A stretch of 63,962 nt of DNA, counting the filler, from Sluysia triapertura (taxonomy: Eukaryota), in NCBI GenBank assembly GCA_046118255.1. It is 5 parts of 5 records of this genome, joined end to end, with 100 filler letters (N's around TTAATTAATTAA, not from the genome) between each part and the next. Parts side by side here need not be neighbours in the genome. Positions count along the whole stretch, not along the records: positions 24,864 to 36,640 come from JBJNIA010171701.1; positions 36,741 to 52,666 come from JBJNIA010214809.1; positions 52,767 to 63,962 come from JBJNIA010187557.1; 2 more parts are not named here. The stretch is one strand, 5' to 3'. Shown piece by piece: positions 25,818 through 57,100 of this stretch; the stretch's first letter is position 1, and each line of letters opens with the position of its first letter. A model generated the notes under the pieces. The model was not told the origin of the DNA. It made no database searches and was given only the letters and a program-made list of their open reading frames with translations. The position numbers and the translations under genes were made by a program.

Positions 25818-28214
25818 TAATATTAATGACGAATTTGTTGACAATAAATCTTTTTCACACTAATATTGACTTTCAAATAATTTAAACATAATTAAATTTT
25901 AATACATTTGCTTTTCAGTTTATGTGATTTATGTAAAATAGAAGTCAGACCAAAGTGCTACTAGATATATTTAAATATTATCAAAAATTCGTCTTTAATC
26001 GCGAATATTTCATCTGAATAGCAATATTATAAGTATTATGTAATCAACATTTTTCAAACGAACATTTAAATAAATTAAATTACATTTTTCTCATAATCTC
26101 TTTCTGTGGTGAATAAATAATAATAAAATATCAATTTTAACTTTACTTTATTCAAATTTGTTTTATTTTTTAGGTTTGTAATGCATACCTTTATGTTTTA
26201 TATATCGAAAAATACTATTAAGAATTTTTTGTAAAAATAATTAAACTAATGTGAATTTGGAAAGTTATAAGAAAAAGCAGAAACCAGTAAATAAAATTTC
26301 TATAAAACACGTTCACATGCCAATTTAGCCATGTTTCATTTACCATTTGTATTTGTAATAATAAATTAGTTAAAATTGACAAATCTAAACTACCTAAGTC
26401 TTCCCGCAGATGTGGGAATAACTTACTAGTTTTCTCGCTATGAACTCGTTTTTAATATGAATTAGTTTAGAGAATTCTGATTGGTTGAGAATCGTTTATT
26501 GGTTAGAATGTATACTATATTAAATTGGATCTCGATTTTTTAGTTTTTTATAAATTTTTTATTTGCACGCCTACAATCCTAAATGAATAAAACAATCTTG
26601 AGTAACAAGTGTGCATTAGTTTGGCGAGGGCGTTCTTTTGTTGCAAACTTTAATTTTATGTTTTGAATAAATTAAACTAACAAAATTATTAAAAACTTTA
26701 GGAGTAAGGCCCTTTACAACAATTAAAAAGTATAAAGTATACAAATTAACCAATTTAATGAAAGGTTCAATGAATAAAAAGGAAACAAACAGAACAATAT
26801 ATAATAACATGCGTGGGTATATCAAAAGGTTCGATAAATAATTGCTGAATTTGTACTGCGTTTTAGTATCACCTAGCTTTGGTAGTGACATGTCTTTTAA
26901 AATTTCATTACATTTTCATGTTGAAGATTTAGGAGACTCATTTAAATTATGTAAAACTGATTTCATTAAAATGCTAGATGTTGACAGAACATTAGAATAT
27001 CCAATATCATCTACTAAAAATGATTCTGCTACTTTCAATAAATAAAATAAAAAATTATCTTCCTTATTATAACTTTCATTTCATCGTCATTATCATTTTT
27101 TGTATAAATAATTGATTTTTTAATTTCGGCCATTAATTATTATTAATTTTATAAATTTTATATTTTATAATTGCAGGTAGCAGCACTTAACAGTAACATT
27201 AGAATAATTATCTTGACTGATTTGCAACAACTTAGATTTAGATGTTGGAATTTCTTTAAAGTTTAACTTTTTAAAACATGCAGCTGAACTGTTAAATATT
27301 TTCACATGTATATGTTTCGTAATCATAAATAACAAAATTAAGCTATAGTATTATTAAATTATGATAACATTTATTTAGAGTTAAAGTTTTTTATATTTCT
27401 TTTGATTTGGTATTAAAAAATGACAAAAGTTTATTTGATAAAATATTATTAAAATAAGGATTGTCTAATTCATTTATGAGATTCAATTTACTAAAATAAT
27501 TACAAAAACTTGTGTCCTTAATATACAAATGATAAGGATAACGTAGAACACATATAATGGCTGAACAATTAAAATAATTTATAATTAAAATTTCCAGTTA
27601 TATTAATTTACTATGTATAAATTGTAAATGAATATTTTGATTAAACATTCTTGAATATGCTTAAGATACGATTTCAAAATTGAAATAAAATTTTACTAAA
27701 AATAAATAACACAAATGGTCAAAAAATGGTACTTGATATAAATAAGAGAATTGAATTGATCTCAAAAATGTGAATTGATATAGACGTGTTCTACTGAGAA
27801 GTGAAAATTCTGATATAAAAAGTTTCTGCATAATGTCGATAGAAAACATTCAAAGAAATTGTTATGTTCAACAAATAAATGCGTCGTTAGTAAAATATAT
27901 TTTAAGGTTAGATTATATAACATATTATGACATAAATGTTCTTGTTTTTATAAACTTTCATTTGTATTAATATAAAATATTTGTGATTATCTAAATTGTA
28001 TTTAATCAAAAGCAGAAAAAACACGAACTTTGATGACCAATAAAAAGCAACTAATTTTATTGCTCTATGAAATTTCCGTACACAATGAGAGTACATTTAT
28101 ATAATTTCTGACTGAAAAACTGTCATTGTTTGACAGAAATTAAATTAATTTTCTAATAAAAATTGTCATTGTTGACAGTAATCACGATAACGGTAATAAT
28201 AATGATGATGATAA

Positions 28215-28550
28215 TTAGTAATAATAATAATAATAATATTTTATTTGATTCTTGACGAATGCAAGGTTCACGCTAGATTGTTTAAACTTCAATGTTTCGA
28301 GAAGGATCATGTGTTGAGTATAAATGGACTTTCCAGTTTTATCATGGTCATTTTCTTTAATGTCGTGGTAGTATCTCCAGCTTCTACCAAATTTTAAGTA
28401 TATACCTAGTTCATTAGTTTGGAAGAGACACTGTGCTGAACAGTAACGTGAAAACGAAGACGAATTTGGACTAATAGACGTCGGTTTAATGATTACGAGA
28501 ATTGATACTTGCATCAGATTTATTCTTTTGGTTTTCTTTAATGACAACAT
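28215..28550 (-). other. 111-aa ORF of unknown function inside a palindrome-flanked cassette
   Basis: ORF track hit with raised GC. It ends in an (ATT)n tract and is bracketed by twin CTGTCA/TGACAG palindromes. Confidence 0.35.
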
Positions 28551-30822
28551 CGAGTTGCGGTTGTAAGGTTTGAATTTCTTTATACATAATATTTACTTTT
28601 CTGAAATTAAATCGTTAGCCAACGAGTTCAGTGAGAAGTTCAAATTTGATTGCATTACCTGATGACTTAGATAATGAGATACGTCCAATCAAATACACTA
28701 AAACGACAAACAGCACCAAAATAGAATGATATCATGCATTCAGCAACTGTTTAATTGTAAATGTGAGTAATGAGCACAAACGACAATAATCAAACTTTTC
28801 GTTATATCACTGTCATTAATTGACAGTTAATGCAATTATACAGCTTGATTTAAATTAACTGTCAATTATTGGCAGTTGCTAATAAAAAATGGAAATGATA
28901 ATTATTATCATTATAGTAATAATAATGATAATAAAGATGATCACAATAATAACAATAATTATGATGAAATAAATAAGTAGATTAAATTAATAATAATTAT
29001 TATAAAATTATAAAATTACAAAATGATAAAATACATAAACTTTATTGTTTTCTTACACGATCTTGTCTTTTGTTTCGTTCTTTCTTAACATATAAATAAA
29101 TGAGTTTAACTTAAGTAGGGTTTTATTAACCTAAACTATTAAAAATGATTAAAAAGTGTGAGTTTAATGTTTTTCCAATGTGTCGATGATTAGGTGTGAA
29201 ATTATTGAGAACTTGAAATGTATTTTGTAAAGTTTTAACATTTTCTATGATAATTTAAAATGTAAATTGTGATTATAATGTTGTGGCATCGTGAGTTAAA
29301 ATATTTTAATAAAATTTGAAACGTACATTGATGGTTTGAATGAAAACATAATTTTGATGTTGTTGGGTTGTGAATTTAAAATATTTTGAAATGTGAAAAA
29401 GGCTTTGATAAATCTAAAATGTTAAAATGTAAAATGTTAGTAGGTATGATATTTTATGTAAAATGATGGTTATTAATTTTGAATAAAATGTTGGCCACCA
29501 CAAATGCATAATATCTTTACATAAATTCTTGTTTCTTTTATATATTTCTCTCTTTCTTAAAAATATAAATTGTTAACATAAAAGTTTTATTCCATAAACA
29601 TCAGATAAAATGACACTTTGATGATATAAAGGTAGAGTGAACATGAAGTGAAGATTGTGAAGGAATATCAAAGTGTAATAACAAAGTTAAATGTGTTAAA
29701 GGAAATTCCATTTAAATTAATATTGCTATATTTAAATTTAAAATACAAATTTAATAATTTATGATGTTATGAATGCTTTTGGTGTTATAGAAGTGTATTG
29801 AAATGTAATAAAATTTTGTGTGAAGTTCTGTAAAGAGTACTAGATTGTCTATCTTGATTACCATGACCAAACTGATTAATGAAAGTGGCGATTGTCGAAT
29901 TTATGAAGAAGCATCTCGAACACCTTCATCTTCACTTATCACTACTATTCTGTTGAGAATTTAATTACGAATTGCACATATGACAACGCCGTGACTCAAT
30001 AATTTTGTTGGATCATCTTTAGATTTATTAAATTTAAATAAAGTGCGGAAAGAGAATTTTTGATTATCCACTTTTTTAGATTAGCTATTACCGTAAATAT
30101 AAATATTGAATGTATAGAATGTATATTGAAGTATGAAATATTGAAATAAAAATAATTGTGAAGAATATGATTTTAATCTTCTACAATAATATATTATATG
30201 AGTTATTGTTGCATAATACTGATAATGCATAATGGAAACAAAGATTTATAAGTTTTAATTCATTACACAAAGTTATCTCATTAATAATTATCTCTTTATT
30301 ATTATTCATTTTTCAATCCTGTTGAAATGAATCGATAATGAATAGTTTAATGACAAATGAGCAACTAAACATTTTTTCTTCATTGATAGGAAACAATTTT
30401 ACATGCAATATAAGTTATATAACTTTCAAAAGAGCTGAAATATTGTTGTGGAATGGTGATACAAAAATCAAAATAACAATGATTATTATTTTTATTATTA
30501 ATTTATTAATTTATTGTTTATAAATTTAAAACGATTGAATTGAAAATTAAATATTTTTATACCTTAAAGCTAAATTTGATAATTTTTCAAATACTTCTAA
30601 TTATTTTTTATAATTAAATTTTATATAAATTTTTATCATAATTAGTTTGAAAATTAAGTTTAAATGTATTAAATGTATTGCATTTAAATGTATTAAATTT
30701 AAAGATAAATTGACAATATTAATAATAATTAAATTTTTTTAATTTAATTTTTTAATTTATTTTAATTAATTTTTGCACAACTAAATTCTGCTTTTCACTA
30801 AATTAGGCCGAAGTATGATTAA

Positions 30823-31116
30823 GCCCTTCACTGTTTATTTATTTTTCAAGCGTATGGTCGAAAACTGGCTATATTTTATAACTAAAATGTGAAGACAAAA
30901 ACAAATAAAATTAGACAAACAGAGTAATAAAACATACAATGTAATATTAAATAATAACAAAAGTAGTTTATAAAGTTATTTCAGATGTCGTTTTATAAAT
31001 ATTATTAAGATTATGCTTATTATTTCGTTTGATTGTTTTGGTCCGTATGTATACGGGATTTTATGCCTGGTCAGTTTTAGTTACTCCGTAAATATACGGA
31101 ATAAACAGTGAAGGGG
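30823..31116. mobile_element. piggyBac-type MITE, family A copy 1 (294 bp)
   Basis: TTAA on both sides. TIR CCCTTCACTGTTTATT/AATAAACAGTGAAGGG. Homologous to 61689-61918. Confidence 0.9.
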
Positions 31117-31120
31117 TTAA

Positions 31121-31700
31121 GCTTGTTTAAAGGATGTATCGATGATGCTTCAAGTATATTGAACATTTAGAAAAAATATATAAAAATTATTAAAGAAGAA
31201 CTAACGAATGAATTGATAAAATGGTTTGAGAATGAATAAGTAAATGTTTGAAAATCAATTATGATAAGTCAGAATTTATCATTTTCAGAAAGATAAACAA
31301 ATATAAGTGAAACAAAGATAATTGTAAATACTATATCCGAAACTAAAATAATGTAAAATAGGATGAACATGAATGAATATTAGAAAATATATTAATAATG
31401 ACATAGAAAAGCTAATAATATAGATTTTAATAACAGTTCCGTAATATTGCAAAAATTACAATTAATAATAAGGCTTTCAAATGAAAAGAATATCTTGTAT
31501 AATACCTTATCTTAATGAAGTACTTGGGTTACCATTAAAAAAGGTAATAATCTATAAATGCTTACGTTATGGAAGCCTTGAATATTTTTTGGAAGTAATG
31601 AAAAATTCGGAAACTAAAATGAATAATTTAATCAGTATCCACAATGATAATTAAATAACTGACCGAGTACGGACTAATACTTATAAGAAAATATCAAGTA
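31121..31700 (+). mobile_element. Decayed non-LTR retrotransposon reverse-transcriptase fragment (CR1/L2-like)
   Basis: CIDD, ELIKWFEN, LKINYDKSEFIIF and KYLG motifs in the expected order, interrupted by stops and frameshifts. Confidence 0.5.
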
Positions 31701-34700
31701 ATTAGAGGATTTTGAATATATAAAACTTTTACAAATTATAAAACTTTTATTCAAATAAGAAAAATTGTTAATAATTAATCACGTTACAATTTTAAATATA
31801 GAAAAGACAAGATTTGGTGGAACACAATGAAAAAGGCACTGTTGATAATGCTATTAAACTACGCATGAAGTGGCTCAATTCTTGATATTTAAATTTATTA
31901 CTGAATCAGTACGTAACTCATAACATACTTAACAAAATTCCAAATTTAAACCATATATTTCTTAATCATTTCATAGCTCTCTATACATTCTGCATCTTAC
32001 AACCTTTGCAATCAAGCAATTCATTGAAACATTTTAATTTTAAATCACGTAAACAATAATATTACACTAGACAAATTCATCGTACAGATCATCTACAAAC
32101 TCAAACAAATTATAAATTTCGTAAAATCTAATTTATGGAAATTAAACGCTAAAAATTTCTCTTGGAATCATATCTAAATTTAATTGATAATATTTAAGGA
32201 GATTCAGTTTTGTTAAAATTAATATTAAGAATGTTAATGATGCCTTAAAACTGTATTAAACAAAAGTTGGTTATCTAAAGGTCGACCTAATCCACAAAGA
32301 AACTCGTTGATTACCCAGTACTTTCAATTCTATTACTCCATTTACAGCAAAATACGATGCAAGATTATGTTCCTACTTCTGTTTAGATAATTTAGATACT
32401 ATTCTTCTGAGTATATGAGCTTCATGTTATTTAATGAACGAACTCTCGAAACTTTTGTAGTTTCAAAAGCTTGAGTGAACAATGTGAAATAATTTATCCG
32501 ACCATAGCTAATGCAAATATAAACCATCATGTTCCAATGATCCTTTATCTATGAAATTTTTGATACCAAACAGTTTTTTCAATATGTCGATTTGTCAAAT
32601 GTTCTTGAAAATTTGCGTAACCTGTTATAAATACATTTGTTATATCAATTATGATAACTTCACTAAATGCAAAGCGATTAAATTTTCGTGAAATAGATTA
32701 AATGTATTGTTATGTCATTAGATTTTGTATTTGAAACGACTAAAACTTTCCATGTTTCGACAAATTGCTTCTATGTTGGTTATAAAAGTAATTAATTTTA
32801 TAAATATTTTAAATATTTGTATTTTATTTATTATAACTTTTATTTATTAAATGTTCAGTCTCTAAGTAAAATAAATTATAAATTTCTGTTCACGGAAATT
32901 ATAAATGTAAATAAAGATAAAAAAGATAATGAATAAAGTCTTAAAAAGTATTAAATACCCGATATTCAGAGTGAAATAAATCTGAGTCTAGTATCTAAAG
33001 TTAATTTAATAAAATGGTAATGAACATCGTAAGAAATAAAGTAAGAATAAGTAGACTTAAGAATTAATAGACTTACGAATAAGTAGGACACTTGATGAAA
33101 TAATAAATTTGTAAACTGTAATTAAAAATCAATAAGGTTTTGTCTTACAGCTGTAGCAGTTATACTTAATTTCAACTTAATGCATCTTGACTATAATTAT
33201 AAAGTATTTTGAAGGCCATTTGACAATCAGTGCTTACACCATCTTTTAATATACATCTAGAACATACAAATTCTACAATTACCAGTCGACCCAACTATTT
33301 TTCATCAATAAAAATAAATCACATGTAACATCATCCATTAATAATCATTTTAATAAGCTAAAACGTAAAAACGAATTTAAAAAATGTTTGTCTTTCTTGA
33401 TATTGTTTCTTTGAATAATTATTAAAAATGCTTTCTATGTATATTTATAACCTAGTAAAATAAAATTATAATTAAAAAAATAAATATTAAAAAATTTTCT
33501 CCAACATTAAAAATAATCAATCAGTAAAAACATTAATAGTTTATGATATTTTTAGTGACGTTATAAAATGAAAATTATTTACTAATTCATTAAGCAAACA
33601 ACTTATATTTCATTAATATTTTCATACGAGTACGAAAAAAATTCAGAAAATAAATTTACAATGCAATTGAAACTACATAAATTGAAGATGAATGTTTACG
33701 AATTAAAAAGGATAAAAATTTTAATTTAAAAACTGTAAAAATATTTTCTAACAGAAAATTTAAATTTCTTAATAAAATTGAATTTATTATATTATTTGAA
33801 GGTAATATTTTAATTTTAATATTTAAATAAAATTAATTTTATTTTATTAATTTAATGTACTCCCAAAGTTGGCATATGGTATTAATACATCTTTCTTAAA
33901 GGGAAATTAATGTAATAAACGATTTAATGCTCAAAACATTAAATAATTATTTAAAGAAAATTAAAAGAATTGAATTTTAAATTTGTGTTAATTAATTTAC
34001 TATTTAATAAAGTGTATTGGCCAACCTATTTCCTTAATTCGTTTTATAAAAATTTACATAGAATGTTCTTAAAACACTCATCGTAAACATCTATTTTACA
34101 TAAACTTTCGCTAATCTAATAATCATTCTCAAAATCTACAAATCACATTCAAAAATCAATAGAAAACAACATTAAACTAAATCAACAATTTGTGCATAAA
34201 ACCATACTTTTAAACATTTTAACATTATCATATTTATCTCTTTTACTTCCACTAAAAGCATCCTTTTTTATATAAGTTTTTCTCGACACAATGTTTACTT
34301 CCAAATCTACAACCTTATAACATACAAACTACTGTGACATTCAATACTATCAAATTACATTAAAAATTCATCCCAAATATTTTATCCTTCATTTCTTAAC
34401 AATTCAATTTAAACCACATTCTCAACATTGTACAGTCACCTTCTGAACACACTAAGAGTTAAATTATAATTTATCTCCTTTACATTCACTAAACTACACT
34501 CCTCTCAATGTATCTTCAGATCACAATCTCCTAATATTCAAACATTACCTTCACTCAAAAACAGTACTCAGCATCCAAAAATCATTGTAAACATTTACAC
34601 CTTAATAAACCTTCAGCTAGAAACATTATTTTATTTAGAACTTTAAGGATTATGCTAACATCTACAAAACATTCATATTGTTTCAAAACATTTAACATCT

Positions 34701-35313
34701 AAAATTAATTCACTTGAAATGCATAAATAACATTAAAATTAACACTAAAACGCCTTACACAACATAATACATCTTTAAAACTTAACATCTCAATTTTGTA
34801 AGACCCATCTCTTTTTCTTAAGTTATTATGTCCAGAAAATCAAGGATATAAAAGTAAGATCATGTTTAATAAAGAAAAAAAAGAAATTTATGTGTTTAGG
34901 TTAATAATAATAACACTCTTATTATCATTATTATCACCATTTTTAAATGTTATTATTTTTATTTTCAATCAAACTAATAAATTATTTCGTAACTGCCACC
35001 ACCAGTGGTGGCTACATTGATTTACAATGAGATTCAATGTTACCACTGATAGTGGTCCACACATCAATCATTTAACTTTGGTTCTTCATTATTGATCGTC
35101 CAACCAGACTTATTTTTATCACTATTTTTGTACGATTCCCTCGTTGGACGACCAATCAGATTGATTTGTACCACCAAAATTATTATGCTAAAAATTAATT
35201 TGAAAAATCTGTTACAATAACAAAAAGAAACTGAAATTGTACGATTACAAAAATAATCTTGGCAATACTCTTACGACAATTATAAATGTAATCTTAAATT
35301 TTTAACTACATTC

Positions 35314-36178
35314 ATGGAATCTAACAATAATAAAGACGATGATATCGTAGCTAACGATGTCGAAGATGATGATAACGAGGTTAACAATGTTGAAGATGAA
35401 AATTACCCTGAGTAACAACAATAAAGAACACGCTTATCGGTTTCACTACTACAAAGATAATCACTATAAACTTAAAGATTACAAAATTGACATTTTTGAT
35501 TTTAATTAAAATAAAACATAAGTTTACGAATTTAATGAATGTAAAGTTAAGGTACGCGAGTTTATTAATGATAATAATATTTATGAACGTAACGAATATA
35601 AATTTGAGATTTGCGAATTTAACAATGACATTATTAATATTCACGAACTTAATGATTATAAATTTAATGTAAACGATTTTATCAATGATAATAATAATAT
35701 CTATGAATTTAATGAATATAAATTTAAGGTTTATGGAGTGAACGACAATAATAATAATCTCTACTTACTTAATGATTATAAACTTAATGAATTTAAACTT
35801 AATGATAATAAACATAAATATTACAAGTTCAACGATCATAAAATTGCTTGTGTAACTGCTCTTTGTCCATCTTCTACTGACAACAATGGGATATGCTTAA
35901 TGCACGAAATATATTGCCGCCACGCTCATTCTATTTATGAATTAAAGCTAAATAAAGTAGATCAAGCGGGTTGTAATAATCATTTACAAAGAATTGCAGA
36001 ATTACTCAAGAGTATTGGAGTTACCTCTACCACTTCTACTGACGGTATTTTAATGGACTATAACATTAAAGTAAACAATTTTTATATTCATATCCTTTGT
36101 GTTATTATTATTATTTTTTATTAGAAAGTGAAACAACTAAAAGAAGAATCATACTTAGGAACGAAGAAATTAAAATGA
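35314..36178 (+). pseudogene. Disrupted gene encoding an Asn/Tyr-rich 20-aa tandem-repeat protein
   Basis: Acidic start MESNNNKDDDIVANDVEDDD, then a frameshift and two TAA stops. An open frame 35522-36070 holds about five 60-nt repeats and a Cys/His-containing region. Probable 54-nt intron at 36071-36124. Confidence 0.5.
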
Positions 36179-37847
36179 AATTTCTAATAAATAAAATTTT
36201 GCCTTTATTTTCAACTTTTGTCTAAAGAGAATATAACAATTTGTTTAGATTTACAAATTTTAAACCAAAAAATTTTAAAGATAAATATAAATTAAAGTTT
36301 AATTCCGATTTTAACCTCAATTTGAGAAACATAATAATCATTAAACATCCGCAACATAAAGAAACAAAATTAAATTAATTTTTTTCTACAAAATGTATCA
36401 TTAATCATTTCAACGGAAAAAATAAGTTATAGGCGATTAATTTAGATTGGACCATTAAATTTTAATATTATTTATATTCTATAAATTATTATTTATTATT
36501 ACTTATTATACTATATTTTACATTTAAATGTTACATGTGGAAATTGTTTAATCTGACATTATAATTATAAATTTTGTTCTTTTATTTTAAATTTAATAAC
36601 TTTTAATGTTTCACATCAAAGGAATATGAAGATGATTTAANNNNNNNNNNNNNNNNNNNNNNNNNNNNNNNNNNNNNNNNNNNNTTAATTAATTAANNNN
36701 NNNNNNNNNNNNNNNNNNNNNNNNNNNNNNNNNNNNNNNNTTTATTAAATAATTTGTTATTATTTTAAATAAAAGTATCAATACAATATAATTTTTATTT
36801 TATACAATATTAATAATTTTTATTTTATAATATAATAAATATTGAACAATATTAATATAATAAATATTTAACAATATCAATAATAATTACATACTTACAT
36901 TATTTTGGACGATTCAAAATTTGTTTTTAATATTAAATTATCCACAATTGCTTAAAAATTATAACTCCAAATAGATATTAAATTATTGCAATAAAAATTT
37001 GAATTAAAATTAATTATTTTCAATTATTTATAGTTAAAATAATGTGATATGAAAATATAAACTTTAAATGATGTGAAAATATACTTTAACTTTTAAACTT
37101 GAACTTATTTAACTTTATGTGATGTGAACTTTAACTTTACATATATATAATGTGCTTCGGAATTGAAATTCATCTTAAATTCACTTTTTGTTTTAAAATT
37201 AATTGATAAAATAAATATTAATTATAATATGTAATGTTTAAACATTACCATTTTATCGATAAAGTGATTAATCAGCATATTTCATGAAACACGAACTTGC
37301 TCACTCATAAAATTTGATTATTATTTCCTTTACTTTTAGAATAAATATAAATAAACATTGTAGTTTTGTATAATTCTTAAATATTATAATTTTGTTATTT
37401 TAAATATGCAAGTAATGCAAACTAGAAAGAGAACGGTAGACAAGTAAGATAAGAAATGAAAATTAATTACAGTTAAAATTGTTTAAAAAAACTTTATTTT
37501 TATATCTGATTTATCGTTTTTGTATATTCATAAATATTTAAAAATTAATTTATGTAAGCTTAATATTTTTAGACAATAATGATTTTATTAATTATTTATT
37601 ATTATAATTATGCTTAATTTGTGTACGCAAAAAGTATTTTTTTGTTATACTTATAAGACATTTTAAATTAACATTTAATTTAAAATTTGTCAAAATGAGA
37701 GTGAATATTTAAACAACTTAGAGACGTTAATCTAATTTATGTATTTAGTACTGATAAATTAATATAAATACTTTGATAAAAATAAAAAGATTATTTATTA
37801 TTTATTTATTATTAAACAGTAGTAATAATAATAATATTAAACGTTTT

Positions 37848-41300: not shown

Positions 41301-41453
41301 TTTATTACTTTATTATTTTTATTATTATTTTATCATTATTATTTATTTTATTTTATTTTTATTTTATTATTACCGTTATATGACTTGTTTTGAATCGTAA
41401 TTAAAACAAAAGTTTTAATTACTAAAGGATTTAAAAATTATTACAAATTAAAT

Positions 41454-42656: not shown

Positions 42657-45600
42657 TATTTAGTTGATTTGTTGATGAAAGTTCAGTCTTGAAGAAAGAA
42701 GATTAAATATTATATTTCAAAAAAAATACAATTTCTAGTATTTTTGATTGACTGAAAGCAACTAAAAATAAAAACATTCCGTTTTTTACCTTTAATTTCT
42801 CCAATAAATAAATATTTATTAGCATGATCATGACACATTTTAGTAATAATCGTTACATTTATTTTAAATTGATTTAATTTCTTTTATGCTTCATTGTATG
42901 AAAGTTTTAGACTAGAGCAAAATATTTACGTACCCAAAAGCTATCTTAAGTAACAAATACAAAAGTCTTAACGAACGTTTTTTAAAAACTTACGAGAAAG
43001 TAGAAATAGATACTTAAAAAGAATTAAATATTCATGGAAAACATAAAGAAAATAGCCAATAATTTGTTGTAATTAATTAGTACTAATTGAACATAATTAT
43101 TAATGAAACAAAAAATATGCTACAAAATAAATACTAACAAGCACAAACATATATTAGTTAACAAAGCGAATATAAATGAATAAAAGTACATGATTGGTGT
43201 GCTGGTCTGACTCATTATATATGATTTTATTACAATGTCACTTCATAACAAAGTTTTAACCCTTAACATAATTAAAAAAATTTCCACTTTAAATCACATA
43301 ATCGTCAACAATTACACAACCCTTCTCACACTTTATGTCTTACAAGTTTCACAATCAACCATTTAACATTAACATTACACGGGACAAATTCATCTTACAT
43401 ATTATCGAGGACACAAACAATTTATATTCGTGTAACAGTAAAGCAAGAGGTCAACATAATCCAGAAATTCATCCCAGATACACGTCTTTAGAACACCAAA
43501 TAACAATATTTCAAAGACAAAAAGTCGTCACACTTTACAATAGTCAATTCATTTTACAAACGTCGGTCAACAAATAAATCTAATATTCAATTATTCAACT
43601 CGTGATAGAGCGGTTTTTCTCAAATGAAAAAATTCGGTGGTAGTAATAATGTTAACATTAAGCAAACATTACAAATAAATGTACCATTTTTTGCTGATCT
43701 GATTGAAACCTCGATAAATTTTTTGTCGGACAATGCAGCGTTTTGATAGTGAAACAGTTAGTTTTGCCATTTTGTGTTTGTATTTTCCGATTTCTAATAT
43801 GCATTACGGAGATTTCGTTGGATTTGAAGAAACGTTACCATTATTGCACCCCGTGACTATGAAATTGTCTCTTATTCATCACTAGTCATTTCAATTTTTG
43901 ACGAATTAGTATGGCAACTTTTGGAGCAAAAACAAATTTCAAAAAATGCCGTAGTTTACCAATAGCAAAAATTTTACATCACTCCAAAACAATTTCTAAT
44001 CAGATAAATGTAATAAATTAATAGTTCAGTTAATAGTCGAACTAAATTTAGTTCATAGAAGTCAAAATTCGTATTATAAGAGACTTCACATGGTCCTAAA
44101 ATGGCTGGAACAGGATTATCTTCTACTAGCTTCTTGGGAGCTTGTGTTTTTTTTACCGCGTTTCTACAAACATAAATGATACATTCATTTGTTGAGTGTA
44201 CAGGGTAGTCAGATTGATTTAAATAATTTAATTTAATTCTTTAATAACTTTAAATTCCAATCTCAGAAAATCAATTATATTTATATTTTTGTATCACAAT
44301 TAACAAAACTTATAGTTATCATAAATATAAGTTACACAACAATTATCACGAATAAAAGTTAAATATTAAAAAATAAAGATTATAAACATGAAATTTTAAA
44401 TTAAAAATCAAGTACAAGTTAATTAATTATTAAATTTAAAGCACTACTAACAAAAATTAAACAATTAAAAAATTGAATATCTTCACAAAATCAAATCAAT
44501 ATAATCAACGAAATAATAACAAACCATTATCCCACATAATGCAATTTGAATCGAACACAAGGCTTTCCATTTAATGACGTTAGATGAAATATAATTCTAG
44601 ATTCACAATTCCAATAATTTTTGTTGATTAATTAGAAACGAAACCAGCTTATTTATATTGTTAATTTTTATTCATATTTATCTCTAGAATCCATAATTAA
44701 CAAATAACACAAAATCTACATGCACTCAATTTCTTTCTGTGCATGAAACTAATACTCATTAGTCAAACCAAATTAGATTAAGTCCAACATTTTTCACTTT
44801 AATCCGAAGTTATTTTGCAAAACGTACATTAATAAATATAATTTCATCAGTTTTATAACTTAAAACATAATTTAAGGTTTTTTCATGTGTTATCTGAAAA
44901 TGTCTTATCTCATTGCCATTTTTCTTGTTGAAATTGATTTATCCATTAATCATTTTTATTATAATTATTATCATTTTTATTTCTATTATTTATTATTATA
45001 AAAATTTTATTAGTAATTTTGTAATTATAATAATTATTATTAATTTTCTTTATTTCTGCAATTTCTTTCAATATTAATAAATATCTTTAATTTTCAATTT
45101 TATTATTAATTTCAAAATTTCTTCAAATTTTATTATTAAATTAATTTTGTTTTTAATATGATTTTTATTTTAAAGTTAATTATTATTACTAATTTAATTT
45201 TTTAATATTAATTTAATTTCAGATCCACACCTGTAAGATGATTTTTCTATAAGTCCTGAATAGGTTTATTGGGTATATGTTTTTGTGTAAGATATTATTG
45301 TGAATAGAATTTTTGTTCTAAGTATTATGGTTTTGTTGGTTTATAAATAGTATTTGATTTATGTCGAGCATTAATAAAACAAGTGGTTGTCATAAAATTA
45401 TTCGAGATTTCATTATCACATTTTATAGAGTGATAAAGATTGTTTATTTTTGGTTTGTTTTGATGGGTGAATGTGTATAAAAAATTTAATTAAATATAAT
45501 TAAAATTATGAGCAGAAATAACTTTTTAATTCTCAAAGTTTCTTTAATGACCTTATTAATCAAGGCTTTCATTAAAATATGTTTAGATAACAAGTTTCCG

Positions 45601-48600
45601 CTCAAATTTATTTATTTATGCCTGGATTTATTTATTCCTTAAATTTGTATCTTTATGACTCAAATTTATCATGTTAGCGCATAACACATTTATTATGTTT
45701 TGGGTCAGAATTACTCTAAAAGAATAATAGTTGAAACACGTATATAAAACAAAATTGAAACGAATAAAACAGATAAAAATGAACTTTAACAATTACAGCA
45801 TAAATGACTTTTGTTTTTCTTTCTTTCTCGATGAATAGCCTTTCAAACTAGTCAAGTCAGTATCAGACTAAGTTGAATGGAACAGCAACATATTCGATTT
45901 CCTTCTATTTACACTTTTCGCATGAATATGTAAAATTTTATGGTAATTATTTATTTAATTTCTTACGATATTAGACTTACTCACTTAAGGGCAAATACGT
46001 ATAAAATAGTTATTTTGAGGTTTTTTTATATCTTAAAGTGTCAGCAGACTAGTTAAAGAACTATTGCTATAATGTCAGGGATTCAGTTTCTGTCTTATTT
46101 CAATGACAGAATTATGTAATTTACGTCGTATCCCAATTAAAAAGGATCTTCAAAAATGAAATTTAATATTAAACTACCAAAAACACAGGATTTTTGGGTT
46201 AGTTTATAACTATGTAAGTTAAATGCTACGAAAGTAATTTAATTAAGAAAACACAATGTGAATAATTTATATTAGGATAAATCCTGGAAGGCTGCAAATC
46301 TTCGTTATAATAAATATATAAAGATTACAAAAATTCGATACTAATGGTAATAATTTTTTCTTACGATAATTTTTGAAATTAAATTTTACTTCAACCCTTT
46401 AAACGGTTGAATAAAATAATATTAAAAGATTTTAAGTAGGATTTTTTGTCAACACTAAACGGTTCCAAAAACTTAAATAAACTGACCAATGGATTATTCT
46501 TTTGGATGAATATGGTTTTGAATCGATGCCGTTGTTCTCTACACTATCAGAATTTATGTAATATCCAGACTACGTCGAAGGTAAAATTTTTTCTGTGTAT
46601 GATTTTAAAAATTCGTTGATTGACTGTCATAAATTTATGTTGTTAGTTATTGTTGTTGTGAAATATTATGTGAAGTATTATATATTTATACTGAATTTTC
46701 AAGGCCACATGAAAAAATTTAAACAATAGCTTTTTATTAATTAAATATAATTTTACAAATTATTTGTTAAAAATCCATTATTTTAAATAATCCATTAATC
46801 AAATTAAAGTAAACTTAAATTATTATTAATAAATTAATGTTATTGATTATTATTAATTAATGTCATTTAATTAATGTTAAAATAAAATTATACATATAAT
46901 TAAGAAATAGTGATTTTCAATATAAAGTTATACATATAATCAAAAGTTAGATTATTCATAAATTACATAAGTTGACTTTGTTCATAAAAATTACAAACAT
47001 ACAAGTTGACTTTTTACAAATACATAACTTTATATTTTAACTAAATTGTTCATAAAACTTTTTGTAATTTTTGCTATATTTCATCAATTCATCTAACGAT
47101 CCTAAACATTTATTTACCAAATTGTCAGAGATTATATTCATTTTTATTTTATAATATTTTACGATTGATATTCAAAAACAAATCTTCACTGTTAACAACT
47201 TTCATATGGCTCAAATACTCCGCAAAAAATCTTCAAAATTGTGCATGATGCATACTGACTTTAAATATGATTTAATATTATTTGATATTTCGTTTATCAA
47301 ACGAATAAAATAGAACAAAATTCGAAACTCAAACTGACAATAAAATACTTCATGGCTATATAATTCTCCCAGTTTAGATACGTTGGTTTCACATTCTAAA
47401 TTTTGTTTGTTTACTTTATTTTATTTAAAAAGAGGATTCATTAGAAATAACCTGAGTACTTAGGAAAGTAGAACACATATCAACATTCTTTTTGTTCAAA
47501 TTGTGCATTTTTATAAGTACACCTTTCTTTCTCTTAATCTGCCTTGTAATATTTGAGAATTCATTGAATGGAATCATATCTTTAATACTAAAATTGGTAC
47601 TATTATTATATGCCGTTGAAACTGATTGACCATAACGAATAAATATTGTAATTCTCTTGTTCGTTAAAAGGGTAACAGTGGTATTAATTACAGCCGAATT
47701 AATACTGCTGTTTAAAATCTTTAATTTAGATGTTTCCTGGTATATGTTATATTCGAAAACAATCGCATTAAGATTTTAAATATATTAATCATAACTGACC
47801 CTTTACATTACCTTTTAATTTAATTAGCAATTCTTTAACTTCATATATTTCTGTATAAACTGTAAGTAGCTATACCCATTTCAAAAATGATATTATTCTG
47901 AGTCTAAACAGTACCAGATTCAACTGTAGATGCACTTTTAGGATAGACATATAACGTAATGTGATAATAATGTTTCATATTATTACTCTTCTTTATCTTC
48001 AACTAAGATAAAATTCTGATTTTTTTCATTAATTTTAACTAGAATCTAGGCCTAAAATTAAAATCAAATAATAAAAAATAAAAATATTATAATAACGTAT
48101 TGTGAAGATCTGAAATAAAAAATAATTTAAATTGAAATTAATTAATGTAAAAATAAATTAACAAAATTTAATGATTTTAATAAATTAAAGAACGAAATCA
48201 TAAAAATTTTAATGACTTTAATTAAAACGAAAATTAATTCACAAAAATTTTAATTGTGAAATTTAATAGCCAAAATCAAAGGTGATATGAGTAAAAATTT
48301 TATTAGTTAAATGATTTTGTATAAATAGCGTAATGGAGTAATGTTAATTTACAAAAAAAAGAAAAATATAACGATATTAACAGTTAAAGAGGATTTTATA
48401 GTCTAAAGTCTCGTTTAATATCGCAAAAGGATTTTTTCAATCAGTTCCAGATCATTACAGGCCTTTCTTTTATTTCGATAATTCAGTAAGTTTATAATTT
48501 TAAGGTTCTTCTTCCTTAAGGAAGAAACAAAATCAAACTTAAATTTCACCAATTTGCAAGCTAGCTTAAGCTAGTTGAATCTCATTTTTAAAATTTCTAT

Positions 48601-49330
48601 TTTATATTCAAAAAGGAAAAATTTTATTGCACTAATATTTTATTTATTTAATATGTATTGGTGTGACATTTTATATCATAATTGTATAATCTTTTGCATC
48701 ACAACTGTTATGTATACTTTCGTTATTTGCTTATTTTCTTTTAATAATTAACATAGTTAATAGAATAGAGTTATAAAGCTTTAATAATAGTAGATCAGAT
48801 TAACAAGACAGTTAATCTGTTAACTAACGAATTATAAAGAAAATCTTTTAAGGATCGCACTTTTGTTGCAATTAAAACCTACGAATACGTCTTCTATGAT
48901 GCAAACTGTATAACAAATGTGGACTCATGATAATAAGAGTTACTCTATTTTGCTTCGATTTAATATAAAAAACACCGCAGTAATAATAAATTGACAAAAT
49001 TCTTATTAATAAAAATTAATAATAAGAATTACTAATATTTAATAACAATAAAAAATAAAAATTTAATTATAAATATTCGATTTAACAACTAAAAATGACA
49101 AAATAACAATAATAGAAATATTTAGTTGCCGTATTAGCGAAATATTTGATATTAAATGATGTAGAAATAGTCTTAGAGGTGTTTAAGTGCAAAGAAATAT
49201 GAAGATACAATAATAAATGATTGAGTGTGAATTAGTAGTTTTGTGTAAATGTTAAAAATGCATTTTTTGGTATTTGAGATGATGCATTATGATTTGGTTC
49301 ACCACATAGTAATTTGAAAATCTTGTTTAA

Positions 49331-50015
49331 CCCCTTAACGTTCAATTTGTTTTCAAAAAAACTCATTTTTTTATTGTTGCATTATTTACTAAACTATATT
49401 TTAGTGTAATATTTACAAAAAAAATTCAAAAACAAAAAAAACAATGAAAAATATGATATTTATTTGCTTCCAGTCATCAATATCTTCATCACAGGAGCTA
49501 TCTTCAGATTCAGATTCATTATCACTCTCCTCCACATCACTTACTGACAAATCTGCATACTCAAAATCGCTTTCTGAATCACTCATTTTTATTAAATTAT
49601 GCTAAAATAAAAATTAAAATAAAACTTTTCCCTAGACAGGCCTGACTAAACAATAATAAACAATAGTAATATAGATATAAATAAATATAGGTGGACATTT
49701 TATCATCAATATTTGTATAATAAATTTTTATACATAACCTTACGTTTTTATCTACTTATGTTTATTTTATGGATAGAGAAAAACAACATTTTAGGCCGTA
49801 AAAATATTAAAAATATATAAAATTATGTTAATACTAAAGAAATAACCCTTTTCTTATAAAATCGTAAATTTTTCGCATATTTTTTTATTGCTTGAGTTTA
49901 AACGATTGTGATTATTATAGTAATACGAAAAGTGTTGACGCTCGAATTAACTCGAGTGTGCTCATTTCTGCAGGTTTACCTTGCTCGAGTTAATTCGAGT
50001 GTGCGAGTTAAGGGG
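49331..50015 (-). mobile_element. Internally deleted piggyBac element (685 bp)
   Basis: TTAA|CCCCTTAAC ... GTTAAGGGG|TTAA. Retains an acidic N-terminus MSDSESDFEYADLSVSDVEESDNESESEDSSCDEDIDDWK from 49586 (-), typical of piggyBac transposases. Twin CTCGA..TCGAG palindromes lie at one end. Confidence 0.82.
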
Positions 50016-50527
50016 TTAATTGATTAAATTTAAATTACAAAGAATTTTAAAAGATTCATAGTTATTTAACTAAATTTCGGTTAAATCTTACCGACTAACA
50101 TAAATTGCCTACTCTCAGTTATAAGAATTCAAACTCTTCATTCTTGATTGTAGGTTTAATATTTAAAATTAATAAAAACTCCTCAACATTATTTATTGAA
50201 AATTTTTTCTTTTGCAATGCATTATCGTTACAAAAGAAGTGATTATGATGCATGATAAATGCTAAAATTGGTAATGAAATTTTTAATGAATCAATAACAA
50301 ATTCACAAGTAATTGCAACTATTACTGGAATTCACGCCTACTTGAGGTGAAATTAATTATACTCGAGTACATTTTTTTGTATTTTGAAAAAATTTATTTA
50401 TATTTTATAAATTTTGTAAAAACAAATTTGATATAATATACATGGAATGGAATAATTACAAAATAATTATTAAATGCCTTGTTTAATATATCTTATTTTC
50501 TACATATAATACAAAATTTTTAGATGC

Positions 50528-50870: not shown

Positions 50871-51071
50871 AAAAATTCAAACAAAATAAAAACTGCTATC
50901 AAAGCACCAAAGAAGCACTAAGATTATTCTCATTTAAAAGAAAAAAGCATTTGCCATCATTACATAATAACTTAACATTGTATGCAATATAAAATATAAA
51001 TTCCAATATTAATATTTCGCAATTATTGGGAATAAATTCATCTAATTATAGTCTTACTTTAAAATAATTAC

Positions 51072-51209
51072 CTTCCTTCACAAGAGAATAGTCTACAGTT
51101 AACCATAGTTTATTGTCGAAATTTTTAACTTTTCTACCAAACTTTTTCATTTCTGATGGATGATCTGCCTGCATTATTAATTTAGCAGTTTCATTATCTT
51201 TGAAAAATT
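51072..51209 (-). CDS. NADAR (YbiA/DUF1768) domain gene, exon 2
   Basis: CAG acceptor. (E)FFKDNETAKLIMQADHPSEMKKFGRKVKNFDNKLWLTVDYSLVKE fits the NADAR LFxD...PxxxKxxGRKVKNFD...W motif. GTAATT donor. Confidence 0.88.
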
Positions 51210-51319
51210 CTGAATGATAAAATTGCTATTAGGTCTAATACATAAAATCTAATAATGGAAATAAATTAAAAATATAAAAAGTTTGAATGCATTGTATGAA
51301 TTAAATGAATTAAATTAAC

Positions 51320-51449
51320 CTGCTTTCTTAAACATCATATACTGTTCACAACAAGAATATGTTTTATGTCCATCACTAAATGAACTGGGATACCACTGAC
51401 TCAAGATATCATTTTCCAACCAAAAAAGTACAAAATTATTTTTAATCAT
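51320..51449 (-). CDS. NADAR (YbiA/DUF1768) domain gene, exon 1
   Basis: Manual translation MIKNNFVLFWLENDILSQWYPSSFSDGHKTYSCCEQYMMFKKA fits the NADAR pattern FFW...SQWYPSxF...YxxxEHYMMxxKA. ATG start and phase-1 GTTAAT donor. Confidence 0.88.
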
Positions 51450-52816
51450 TTATAATCCCGATAAATTTATTATTAATTCATGATCTTAAGAAAAAAATTT
51501 TCTGACATAAAAAATGCAAATTATAAAATTTGGAGTTTTAAATTTATATATATGTTATGACGAAAATAAATAATTTCAATGTATAACGCGAGAAAATTAA
51601 AACAAATATAACTTTTGGTGCAAGTTTAACAAAATCTATCCAAATTATTATGTTAAAAATATATTGTAATAAGATTTGTGGAAACCAAAATGAATGTATT
51701 TAATAGAAAAATATATTTATAGAATACATAATGATAATAAGATAAATTATGGCCAATTTGCCTGTTCTTTCAAAAACATACAACTGCCATCAACTACAAT
51801 TAATGTATTATTCGTGAACATTAAAATTAAATATTAGTGATATAAATAAATATTTATTATTAGTAGCTATTTAGAAACTTCAAGAGAACCTGTAACAGTA
51901 TTTGTATCTGTTAATAAAGATAAGATTCCAGAACCAATTACAAATGAAGAAACTAAAACATTTCTCGTATATTTGAATCACGACAATGCAAATTTAGATA
52001 ATTTATTCGGTTCGAATTTAACACGATATCAAATCTAATTTAGTTATATTAAGTAGGGTTGACAACCTATATAAGTTTAAAGCAGGAAAATTATTAAGAA
52101 AATTTGGATCAACAGAAAGAGTTAATGAACAAGACCTTAATGTATGTTAAGATAATAATTAATGCTATAATGGAGTGCCAAGATACAACAATGATAAAGA
52201 AAATTATTGAATTATTAAGTTAAACGATCCATCTATATGTTTGGATTGTCAGAAAATAAAGTTACTGAAAGGATATTGCAGCTTGAAGGAAAAGGGATCA
52301 ATATTTATAAAGTTTTACGAAAAATTTATAAGTATATTAATTAATTAGTTAAATTAGAATTGTTTAAAAATCATTTTTAATCAATTGTTTGGATTAGTGA
52401 AAGGTAAAGGTAAACTATATTGAGGAATTTAGATAGGGGATTATGATGAATTGTAATGATAATGTTGATACAACAATGATAATTTATCAATGACTCATTT
52501 TGTTTTCTATTCTTCTCATTTTGTTTAAAAAATTATTTATATAATTTTATTGATTTTATTTTTCAACAATTTTGAAATTTAATTTAAAATAAAGGTACGT
52601 GTAATTTTTGTAATTTTTAAATCTTATTTTTATTAAAATTATTATTTTTAAATTATTTTAACTAAANNNNNNNNNNNNNNNNNNNNNNNNNNNNNNNNNN
52701 NNNNNNNNNNTTAATTAATTAANNNNNNNNNNNNNNNNNNNNNNNNNNNNNNNNNNNNNNNNNNNNCTAAGCGATTTTAAATACTTATTTTATATTAGAT
52801 ATTAGCTCTACATAAA

Positions 52817-52847
<31 letters not shown>

Positions 52848-53427: not shown

Positions 53428-53477
53428 GTTAGTTCGCGCTTATTTCATTAAACTCACTGTACTGTTGTGTGTTTTAG

Positions 53478-53649: not shown

Positions 53650-53746
53650 GTTAGTAAATCATTAATATTTTTCCTGAACACACCTACGATACTTTATTCA
53701 AATTTACAATTATGATGTTTAATTTTGAAGTAATATTAAATATTAA

Positions 53747-54110
53747 GTGATCATGAAGGTGCATGGGATGCTTGAAATAGAGGTAGAATTTTAAACATGT
53801 GCTTTGGGAGCTGAAATAACTTCAGCGACGTAGAAAGATCTCATAAAGAGTATGCTATTGTTGAACCGCAGATTGAAATGTTTTTAATTAATATAGGATA
53901 AAAGAAGATCAGTTGTTTTCTAAGGTTTGAAACATTCGTACAGTGTTTCTCTGTGAATGTTTATTAGCAAATGCACATATAGATTGAAGTTTTGTTAATA
54001 ATGATGTAGATATTTATTTCTCTGCTGAGTTTTATAGAGTGCAGTGATTTTAAACTTTTTGAAAATAAATCGTTTTACAATTGTTAGTGCACATGCTCTA
54101 GTGGATCATC
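53747..54110. mobile_element. Possible TTAA-flanked (Kolobok-like) non-autonomous element in an AGAP intron
   Basis: TTAA|GTGATC...GCATG and CATGC...GGATCATC|TTAA imperfect termini, with raised GC. Confidence 0.3.
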
Positions 54111-57100
54111 TTAAATAAGCTTATACTCGTGAAGTTTACTTTTAATTTTTGTTGTAACCTTCATTGACTTTATGTCAAGAACAGGTTCAAAATTTACGAC
54201 AAATTTCAGTGAAAATTCAATTACTAGGCGTTTAGAGAGATATTTTGATCTGCTAATCTCTGCAAAATGTCTTATTTTATAATGGGTTCGTTTGTAGTGC
54301 ACGACTTATTGAGGCATACCTATAGAAAAATCTATAATTATAATTTTTATAATGCGAGGGTTTCTTAATAATTTCTTTCCTTAATTCTATATATTTTGTT
54401 TTTATTGAACAGTTTCTCAAACTTATTTCCTTAATCCTCTTTAATATATAAAAAATACATTCCAAACTACACGAATGTTTATTAATACAAAGAGTAACAA
54501 TATTTAGTAAACGTTTCAAAAATATACAATGATGTCAAAATATTCAATTAAAGTATCAAATAAATATGAATAAAACTATCAATTAAATAACTGTTAGGAA
54601 TAATAAAAATAAGAGTAATAATAAAGTTATAGAGGCTTTATTTCTTTTCAATAAATGGTTTTGGTAATGATTTTGTGATTGGTCTAGGACCAACTGTTAT
54701 TAAAGAAAGTTTGTGTGATTTTATAACTCCTGTGAAAAAACGAGAGGATCGCTAATACAAAGACACTTACTACTTGATACAAAAAATATTAGAATAATGT
54801 TTATGTCCGAATAAAACGTGTGATGGTTACGCAGAATTTGATAACTGATTGTGATACCGTTATATGTAGATTAATTTTGTTGTCGATGTCAATTTATCTT
54901 CCTTATGAAATTAAAACTTTTCTAACTAACTGGGTCTTAACTTATATAAACTTCCATTAGCCAATTACGGCATTTTATTCTATTAATTCCATTAAAATAG
55001 TTTTTATTCTAATCATTATTTTTTCATTACAGACATTTTTGTTAACAATGTGTATATTTATTAATTCCATTAAAAATCCATTACCTTATAGATTATAAAA
55101 ATATTTTCATAATTAGAATATTTTATTATATTTGTGTATTATATTTACTTTTGTATCAATATTTTTAACAGATCCACTTACGTATCTTTAAAAAAGGTCT
55201 GTCGTGTAGAGGTGACTGAAAGGAAAATTGATATTAAAGATTCATTATGATAAAATACTAAACATTCTATACTCATGCAATCATTAAGAAATAAAACGTT
55301 ATTAAATTTACCTTTGTAAAATTTAATAATTGTGATTTATAATTAATAATGGCGTGTGTTATGCGTTTAATCAGTCTCACGCATCAATTGGTTTTGGTCT
55401 TTAACTCTTTCTAAAATTTTAATCTCTTAGTAAAGTCTGTAATTTAACTTTATTTAGTGTAAAGTTAATATTTGTTTTCGATTTTGTCACATTATCTTCT
55501 ATCTTAGAAAAAGAGTTCGATAACCGTCTCCGTTGTTCGAGATGGAAGTTCTTAATAGAATAGACTAAGTTATGAATTTTATAAAGTTATAAATTTTACT
55601 CTGTAAATAAACCATAGTTTTCAATCCCTTATTTATTTGAAACCTTAATCAATCAAATATGTATTAGTAATATCACAGTAATAAACGTTGAATATTTTTC
55701 TAAGAGAAATTTTTTTATGAACGTTCATGTTAAGTTATAAATGATTATTCTTATCGTATTTATTTACAAAATTTGCGAGGAAATTTTACGTTAGATAATC
55801 AATAATTTAACATTTATAAGTGAGTAAAACTTTTTTGAATTCGATTAAAATTAAATAATTATATTTATTTTATTTAATTACACTTATTTTATTTTAAATC
55901 TTTACAAAATTTACTAATAAACTTTCTTTCTTTGAAGATATCAGTTGATGTAAAGGTCAACCTATCACTTTGAGAATTCTATCTCCTTTACATCCACTAA
56001 AACATTATTTTTAATTATGGCCTTTAATGAAAATTGATTTTATTTTTCTGTCATCACTCTATTTTTAGTATACCCAATCAGAGTATTTGAGAGGATGGTA
56101 AGGAATATGCACTCTGATTGGTTTGTGAATCATTTTTATTTGTGAATGTGAAACTAACAACCGTCATCAGTACTGACATTCCAATGACGTTTTTAAATAG
56201 TGTTATCAGTACTGATGGCGGCAGCAACTAACTTAATGGTCTCAATCAAAATTATTAAAATTATCTTATATAAATAATAGGAATAATAATAATAACGACA
56301 ATAAGATTACTATTATTATTATTATTACCAAGAAATAAAAATAAAATACATAAATATTCATTTTACTGAAAACAACAATATCTTTTCTATTCTAGATTCT
56401 TTCATTCTGTATATATAAAATTAGAACTAATGGAATACTGTGAAGGACCAACGATAACAAGATATACTAGTCTCAGTTATCGCTGTTGCTTCATACTCAA
56501 AATAATGAACTGTTTAAGACTTTATTAAATTTATTTATAAAGGTAAAAGAAATGACTTGAGTTATACTTAAGACAAATGGTGTTAGAATATCTTACTAAA
56601 ATTTGTTAATATTTGATCCTTGAATATGATAGTTTGAGATGTTTAATGAAAGGTAAAGTTATTTTAGTTTTAAAAGACAATTACAAAATAAATCTTAATA
56701 TATTATAATGTTATTACGAATAAATGCTAATGATGAATATGTATATATGAAGTAGATTTAGCTTGGTGGAGTTGGTTAAATATTTTAATGTAAAAGATTT
56801 ATATTTCTGCGGTGCTTGTTAACGTCGTTGAATGATGTTATTGTGTTTATGATTTGTGTATTTTATATTGTGATTATGGTTTGTTTGTTAGAATATCTTA
56901 AAAGTGAATGTTGTGAATTATTCGAGATTAAATGTCGGAGTTTGTTGTGATGTGGATGGTTAAAAGTGTTAGTCGCATTGTTGATGTGTGTGAGTTAATG
57001 ATATGTTATAAATAGCGAGTGTTGTTTATGGTAATTGTGTTGGTGTAGTTCCATAGTAAAAAGTGTGATTGTTTTGACAATTATATTTTGAACATTGAAT

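Follow-up and report, generated by a model that had tools for sequence, protein, structure and literature searches.

We analysed a 63,962-nucleotide stretch of DNA (hereafter the window) from the parasitic flatworm Sluysia triapertura, which consists of five parts of five records of assembly GCA_046118255.1 joined end to end with filler and has the composition of animal DNA at 22% GC. Four loci in the window carry a compact module of two short palindromes; we call them A (34995), B (28809), C (56161) and D (28120) and read each along its C-rich strand (plus for A, minus for B, C and D). An earlier, sequence-only reading had proposed that these modules recur with a common polarity, and each was found where that reading had placed it, beginning as described with CTG(C/T)C after an ATT-type tract (the four tracts rank in the top 0.2–1.1% among background 60-nt windows). 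In A, B and C the module closes an element of 0.74–1.05 kb, which has a sharp second boundary at TGT(A/G)(G/T)TGGCCAAC. The modules are probably remnants of transposons and not a new kind of signal. At the filler gaps (13538-13637, 24764-24863, 36641-36740 and 52667-52766), TTAATTAATTAA between the runs of N is a linker artefact that yields spurious inverted repeats.

To quantify the modules, we scanned the window for two composition-weighted palindromes lying 30–60 bp apart and similar to each other, with thresholds chosen so that all four loci pass, and compared the result with 100 local dinucleotide shuffles. The scan returned seven loci, compared with three in total over all shuffles (0.03 per shuffle; 97 shuffles with no locus and three with one), so twin palindromes are not equally frequent in shuffled sequence. 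A stricter scan gave five loci, with A and B the only ones of the four among them, and none in any of 25 shuffles. DNA folding z-scores were -4.1 for A, -3.8 for B, -2.2 for C and -2.5 for D. The centres of the two palindromes lie 39–49 bp apart in the four modules (mean 44). They had been described as inverted copies of each other. In A, B and C the inverted comparison is indeed the better one (20/27, 30/39 and 16/18 matching positions, against 19/30, 21/27 and 17/22 in direct orientation), but the module of D is a direct repeat (24/28, against 18/27 when inverted); what all four modules have in common is two palindromes 39–49 bp apart in either orientation. No third copy of a palindrome arm scored above decoy near the far end of any element. 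Two further palindromic sites were seen in the window, namely an isolated, degenerate and partnerless palindrome of the B/D type at 40591-40607 (score 20.6, decoy 16.3) and two CTTAAG-centred palindromes 50 bp apart at 48509-48574, which fall under the thresholds of both scans.

The far boundary of the elements is defined by TGGCCAAC, which occurs three times in the window, once 0.68–1.03 kb upstream of each of the A, B and C modules and with matching polarity, each copy being preceded by TGT(A/G)(G/T). A word as rare as this common to three bodies was found in 5 of 400 local shuffles and in 1 of 400 random triples. Towards the other end, A, B and C each have a core with a TATA-like box, AATAAA or AGTAAA, and TTTATGT(A/G)TTT (three of its five matches in the window are these cores), followed by the tract and then by the module, while D is a partial homologue of B that has neither the core nor the skewed body (Table 1). 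Just outside the distal palindrome lies a weak inverted match to the element start (background fractions of 0.056 for A, 0.069 for C, 0.098 for B and 0.56 for D; the fractions of A, B and C combine, as calculated by hand, to about 0.015 and those of all four to 0.03), and similarity between the loci ends at or shortly past this palindrome. Five probable relatives (E, F, G, I and N) share features of the start. The four nucleotides before TGT differ in all eight copies (A, B, C, E, F, G, I and N), and among their upstream flanks 4 of 28 pairs had p < 0.05 with no common position, i.e., no consistent homology. One of several roles suggested for the module by the sequence-only reading was that of a mobile-element terminus, and this is borne out by the homologous dispersed repeats, by the end of similarity near the distal palindrome and by the sharp second boundary in A, B and C. 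It is very likely, in our view, that a dispersed family of mobile elements has left old copies without coding capacity here and that the modules are one of their two ends.

Table 1. Positions of the elements, their parts, their probable relatives and the piggyBac elements used for comparison (window coordinates).
Feature	Position	Strand	Details
A, twin-palindrome module	34995..35056	+	inverted copies, centres 45.5 bp apart
B, twin-palindrome module	28809..28876	-	centres 49 bp apart
C, twin-palindrome module	56161..56221	-	centres 39 bp apart
Element A (~1051 bp)	34013..35063	+	from TGT start to candidate ACA end: C-rich body, core, (ATT)n tract and module
A, far boundary motif TGTATTGGCCAACC	34013..34026	+	skew onset
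A, core	34805..34897	+	TATAAAAG 34847-34854; AATAAA 34868-34873; GT-rich TTTATGTGTTT 34887-34897
A, (ATT)n-type tract	34898..34990	+
Element B (~0.74 kb)	28756..29502	-	start TGTGGTGGCCAAC at 29502, C-rich body, candidate end 28756-28767
B, core	29029-29125	-	AATAAA 29041-29046
B, tract	28880-29028	-
Element C (~1004 bp)	56141..57144	-	start TGTAGTGGCCAAC at 57144, C-rich body, candidate end 56141-56152
C, core	56344-56446	-	TATATATA 56410-56417; AGTAAA 56362-56367
C, tract	56230-56343	-
Locus D	28120..28245	-	AATAAA 28240-28245; tract 28182-28240; module 28120-28179 (direct repeat, 43.5 bp period)
Probable relative E	49050..49306	-	TGTGGTG start, skew onset; no module
Probable short relative F (lead only)	24375..24631	-	TGTGGTG start, ATT tract, one hairpin of two closer-set short palindromes
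Probable relative G	43198..43580	+	near-match to start motif at skew onset; homologous to I
Probable relative I	31866..32130	+	homologous to G
Probable relative N	62894..63200	+	TGTGGTG start at skew onset
piggyBac MITE (comparison, outside the family)	30819..31120	-	TTAA, CCCTT ends; palindromes 43 bp apart, one end
piggyBac MITE (comparison)	49327..50019	-	palindromes with 43-bp spacing at the end that precedes an acidic transposase-like N-terminus (ATG 49586)
piggyBac MITE (comparison)	61685..61922	-	palindromes with 44-bp spacing; shares 84-86% identity with the 30819 copy
MITE: miniature inverted-repeat transposable element.

It had also been proposed that the architecture of the modules is conserved and their sequence is not. 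Our alignments show that the sequence, too, is conserved: some 250 nt running through the module can be aligned in register between A and C (z 15.0) and some 125 nt between B and D (z 9.5), and the scores for B–C and A–B are z 5.0 and z 4.0. The bodies of A and C do not align (z 1.3), and exact matches to TGTCA-N3-6-TGACA number three in the window, all within B and D. On the strength of these alignments, together with leave-one-out profiles (see below), the loci fall into two related subgroups, A/C and B/D, that are loosely linked. Homology of the flanks outside the module was found only for B–C, one of six pairs (17 of 500 shuffles), and there was only a weak sign of tandem B1/B2 units (p 0.28 overall and 0.045 when restricted to the core). 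The related claim that pairing is kept while sequence differs is correct for A and C, whose long stem of 14 predicted pairs has three compensatory and three one-sided changes and no broken pair (in two sequences only), but it does not extend to B and D, whose shared structure is one 6-bp hairpin without variation; a four-way alignment retains an outer stem of seven pairs. The conservation of A–C pairs may reflect selection or template-switch copying between the arms, two possibilities that a comparison of two sequences cannot separate. That the modules are host regulatory or microRNA hairpins, or structures arisen by chance, is highly improbable: the geometry of B resembles that of a microRNA precursor and B has sub-threshold Rfam matches (22.7 bits vs a cut-off of 54), but chance is excluded by the 100-shuffle scan and the modules lie within homologous dispersed repeats that share boundaries.

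The segments ahead of the modules had been described as strand-skewed and resembling open reading frames. The skew is present in A, B and C (C 0.18–0.21, G 0.05–0.07) and absent from D (C 0.18, G 0.15), and it sets in at the boundary motif: between the 150 nt before and the 150 nt after the motif, C/G counts change from 11/17 to 29/9 in A, from 16/17 to 29/7 in B, from 26/19 to 36/10 in C and from 11/17 to 33/9 in E (49306). A motif-blind change-point scan gave 37 onsets, and for six of these a copy of the motif, allowing one mismatch, lay no more than 60 nt away (background 3.5%); without the two training loci the figure was 4 of 35 (p about 0.035, calculated by hand), and the scan did not locate the B onset at the B motif. 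Coding potential, by contrast, was not found by periodicity, stop codons or database searches. Specifically, 3-periodicity of the skewed bodies was absent (0.90–1.04, with a null of about 1.0 and 2.08 for a stonin exon), and an apparent depletion of stops on the C-rich strand was gone when measured against dinucleotide shuffles (Stouffer z +0.9). Pfam searches with 28, 18 and 115 translated pieces (the last set being 115 of 236 stop-free frames of at least 48 amino acids, picked by complexity and by position above 16000) returned no match for the A–D bodies, and a search of PDB with one A frame gave only matches at E 0.11 and 0.44 to an unrelated channel. A second A frame had no match among 1.84 billion representatives, a three-frame alignment of A, B and C yielded 0 of 845 candidates, a D frame had no usable match in Atlas, and Rfam families and tRNA gave nothing over cut-off. 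Some frames resembled by eye the motifs of Penelope reverse transcriptase, of GIY-YIG and AP endonucleases and of zinc knuckles, resemblances that we set aside.

These results bear on the idea that the loci are 3′ ends of Penelope-like elements or long interspersed nuclear elements (LINEs), in which a C-rich decayed frame and AATAAA would lead to an (ATT)n tail and then to a terminal palindrome or a favoured target. The polarity suits such a tail, and Penelope repeats may carry palindromes of 18–38 bp (PMC3846280), but there are no coding statistics to match, no family, structure or database search found a reverse transcriptase or GIY-YIG domain (decay could hide them), and no hammerhead was detected by Rfam or by motif near the modules. 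A sharp 5′ start common to the elements, with ends more conserved than bodies, is also the opposite of what 5′-truncating retroelements show, and the passages on Penelope-like elements in PMC3846280, PMC4209133, PMC8557442 and bioRxiv 2026.07.22.740005 lend no support. We regard this origin as very unlikely.

Close parallels to the modules were found within the window itself. The other three of the seven scan loci (31049, 49948 and 61850) are ends of elements that have TTAA at both ends and CCCTT-type terminal repeats, features by which we class them as piggyBac MITEs. Their palindromes are centred 27.5 and 70.5–71.5 nt from TTAA, at one end only, and the acidic N-terminus in the 49327-50019 copy is one that we take to resemble piggyBac transposases. 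At least four whole MITEs of piggyBac type are present (13844-14372, 30819-31120, 49327-50019 and 61685-61922), as well as single ends at 2009, 13773 and 20273, and in two of the MITEs the minus strand still encodes an acidic N-terminus like that of a transposase. In piggyBat of Myotis lucifugus, left-end motifs at bp 11-16, 55-60 and 99-104 are each followed by an imperfect palindrome; these palindromes have a 44-bp period, are bound by the cysteine-rich domains of the transposase, are absent from the right end and are unrelated in sequence to those of piggyBac (PMC11707139). The suggestion that the modules fit none of the transposon types seen here is therefore not supported: a palindrome period of 43–44 bp at the piggyBac MITE ends and in piggyBat means that the architecture is not new.

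Judged by their ends, the four loci are nevertheless not themselves members of piggyBac, because a TTAA-CCCT-like tip is found only in B and the far ends are of another kind. Like piggyBac left ends, they have a pair of imperfect palindromes, spaced by about 44 bp and confined to one end, with a palindrome sequence specific to the family, but they differ in that three of the four have no TTAA+CCCT tip, the far end is TGT with random flanks, the spacing is looser (39–49 bp), and A, B and C match better inverted than direct. One explanation is that the loci derive from a non-autonomous cut-and-paste DNA transposon of the DDE type, in which the palindromes would be tandem transposase-binding sites, the ends a short TGT-type terminal inverted repeat, and the G-rich strand the transcribed one. 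The spacing agrees with that of the piggyBac MITE ends and piggyBat, the one-sided occurrence of the arms is the asymmetry seen in piggyBat, the direct arrangement in D suits binding sites better than a long stem, and the tip of B lies at the piggyBac offset (background fraction 0.023). On the other hand, the same tip test failed for A (0.32), C (0.87) and D (0.27), the far ends are TGT with unrelated flanks and no TTAA-CCC, and no transposase remains were found at the loci in the Pfam searches. Ginger1 and Ginger2 also have TGT...ACA ends, but the terminal inverted repeats of 40–270 bp and the CCGG/CCGT or RTATAY targets described for them (PMC2836005) were not seen, the flanks fitting neither target; Kolobok is ruled out by the ends and targets given for it in PMC9587614. 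We consider such a transposon rather unlikely yet the strongest of the alternatives, mainly because palindromes in either orientation would be explained by paired binding sites on double-stranded DNA no less well than by an RNA stem.

Hairpins next to a microsatellite also recall non-autonomous Helentrons (HINE, DINE-1-like or Helitron2), which would combine a palindromic subterminal repeat, a stem-loop and a microsatellite, with single-stranded hairpins recognised by a rolling-circle HUH transposase. HINEs have palindromic subterminal repeats of 12–15 bp, a 3′ palindrome, optional microsatellites and family-specific sequences (PMC4067079), a description that fits the loci in part, as do the shared features of the wider group in PMC3627910 and PMC11417382. 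The far motif contains a TGGCCA palindrome and resembles the proximal arm of A (19 of 500 shuffles), and compensatory changes occur in the A–C stem. However, the far motif is unlike the modules of B, C and D (83, 80 and 156 of 500 shuffles), so that three of the four loci have no matching subterminal repeat at both ends, and two similar palindromes stand at a single end. There is also no T|T insertion (T directly precedes TGT in three of eight starts, TT in one of eight), nor is there a conserved hairpin beyond the far motif, which Helitron2 requires if the element is read in reverse (PMC3627910). A Helentron origin thus seems unlikely. Canonical Helitrons were rejected, as the flanks contain no 5′ TC and no 3′ CTRR after one hairpin.

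The reading that we prefer, at a probability of roughly 0.4, is that A, B and C are decayed solo long terminal repeats (LTRs) of the CsRn1/Saci-2-like group of Gypsy retrotransposons, with the palindromes near the 3′ end. A solo LTR is left behind when the two LTRs of an inserted element recombine with each other. Read along the C-rich strand, the layout would be an integrase end TGT, a C-rich U3, TATA, a polyadenylation signal, a GT-rich element and a U5 that holds the (ATT)n tract and the twin palindromes directly before an ACA end; D would be a partial duplicate of the distal part of B. The palindrome pair could represent a duplicated site about four helical turns apart, whose self-similarity would be maintained by selection or by template switching, and it might function either on DNA, as a pair of binding sites, or within the 5′ leader of RNA transcribed from the element. 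Palindromes in the RNA leader serve dimerisation in some retroelements. The LTR identity, the U3-R-U5 assignment and any function of the palindromes are what we infer from the homology, boundaries, skew switch and motif order observed in the elements.

Several published features of Gypsy LTRs are consistent with this assignment. CsRN1-clade LTRs have the 5′ integrase motif TGTGGYG (PMC3601003, Table 3), which is matched exactly in B, E, F and N, with one mismatch in C and G and with two in A and I, and is absent in D. Conserved LTR parts include TATA, AATAAA, a GT-rich stretch and short inverted ends (PMC3601003), and the order TATA, AATAAA, GT-rich is present in A, B and C, although these motifs are common in this DNA. 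Flatworm CsRn1-like and Saci2-like elements start with TGT and make 4-bp duplications without target preference (PMC2582038, PMC12471100). LTRs of different Saci2 families are only 15–40% similar (PMC12471100), with which poorly alignable bodies carrying conserved signals are consistent. The loci are thus like the LTRs of CsRn1 and Saci-2 in their TGTGGYG-type 5′ end, lack of target preference, motif order and fast-diverging body, but the passages on these LTRs in PMC3601003, PMC2582038 and PMC12471100 do not mention an (ATT)n tract with twin palindromes. A non-exhaustive literature search found neither this family nor an LTR with twin U5 palindromes.

A number of observations count against solo LTRs. 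There is no 4-bp target-site duplication for A, and matches for B and C are at chance level, with positions that disagree and 3′ tips that are uncertain. No TGG primer site adjoins any module end (the nearest lies at least 22 nt beyond) and no polypurine tract directly precedes TGT, neither of which is expected for solo LTRs; searches of the window revealed no trace of gag or pol. Only B has an exact copy of the 3′ motif MSYYAMA, which lies 47 nt out (expectation, 0.12 per 70 nt), and the elements, at 0.74–1.05 kb, are about twice as long as reported flatworm Gypsy LTRs (251–521 bp in PMC12471100; 381 bp in PMC2582038). Moreover, the signals are frequent, with 160 TATAAAA and 581 AATAAA matches in DNA of 78% AT and with 10 exact TGTGGYG matches in the window, only four of them ahead of C-rich segments. 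Leave-one-out profiles placed all three cores correctly, albeit weakly (E 0.6–1.3; best decoy 1.1), and recovered two of the four modules, missing B and D. Finally, the period of about 44 bp is explained by piggyBac ends and not by LTRs. Direct repeats flanking gag-pol were not found within the window.

It is also conceivable, if unlikely, that the loci represent a new flatworm element family in which an integrase-type TGT end is joined to a piggyBac-like palindrome pair with a 44-bp period. It may consist of LTRs whose U5 acquired twin transposase-style sites that selection makes covary, or it may be a DDE transposon group of a new kind that has ends like those of Gypsy but no fixed target. 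A virus-like origin, which had been suggested as well, drew no evidence, no comparison with viral or metagenome contigs having been made.

The window contains several other features. Directly after element A, a plus-strand frame (35315-36124), with a 9-bp inverted repeat ahead of it (~35098-35153), has an acidic start, in-frame 60-bp tandem repeats and a CCCH-type finger; no homologue was found beyond weak leads in Pfam (E 0.04) and Atlas (0.89, generic CCCH fingers), and its identification as a Saci-2 Gag is unsupported (0 of 95 candidates). Stonin exons (Pfam Adap_comp_sub) lie on the minus strand at 14398-20922, one of them sharing 63–71% identity with the stonins of trematodes, cestodes and monogeneans, without favouring any of the three, and 61% with that of Macrostomum, from which the host is probably a neodermatan flatworm; the body of D, considered as a stonin exon, had no match among 30 stonin proteins. 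An intronless plus-strand frame of 400 amino acids (41454-42656), with an ATT tract ahead of it, has no match in the protein collection and looks like a chimera of host gene fragments, with weak matches to the RSE1/DDB1/CPSF1 beta-propeller (E 0.0018), ELM2 (E 4e-5) and WDR41 (E 0.012) and a start that is presumably SF3B3-like. A NADAR-domain gene fragment (51049-51400, minus strand; Pfam E 3e-11) with an apparent intron is probably a host gene, and probable host exons without a clear Pfam match lie at 6718-7164 (plus; cadherin-like by eye) and 62173-62502 (minus). A separate, A-rich dispersed repeat family is represented by pieces 68–79% identical at 22486-23156, 31179-31431 and 51683-51870, and a further short repeat by two copies, 76% identical, at 17686-17781 and 44794-44881.

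Given that twin palindromes about 44 bp apart occur at the ends of unrelated elements in one genome, this layout alone does not define a new class. If A, B and C are solo LTRs, they would add, for a parasitic flatworm with little annotation, a Gypsy family whose LTRs are long and have an unusual palindromic U5, and the combination of a TGT start, a skew switch and a twin palindrome would offer a cheap marker for old repeats missed by library searches. The finding would be of greater importance only if autonomous copies proved to encode a transposase of a new group or to conserve an RNA structure whose pairs covary.

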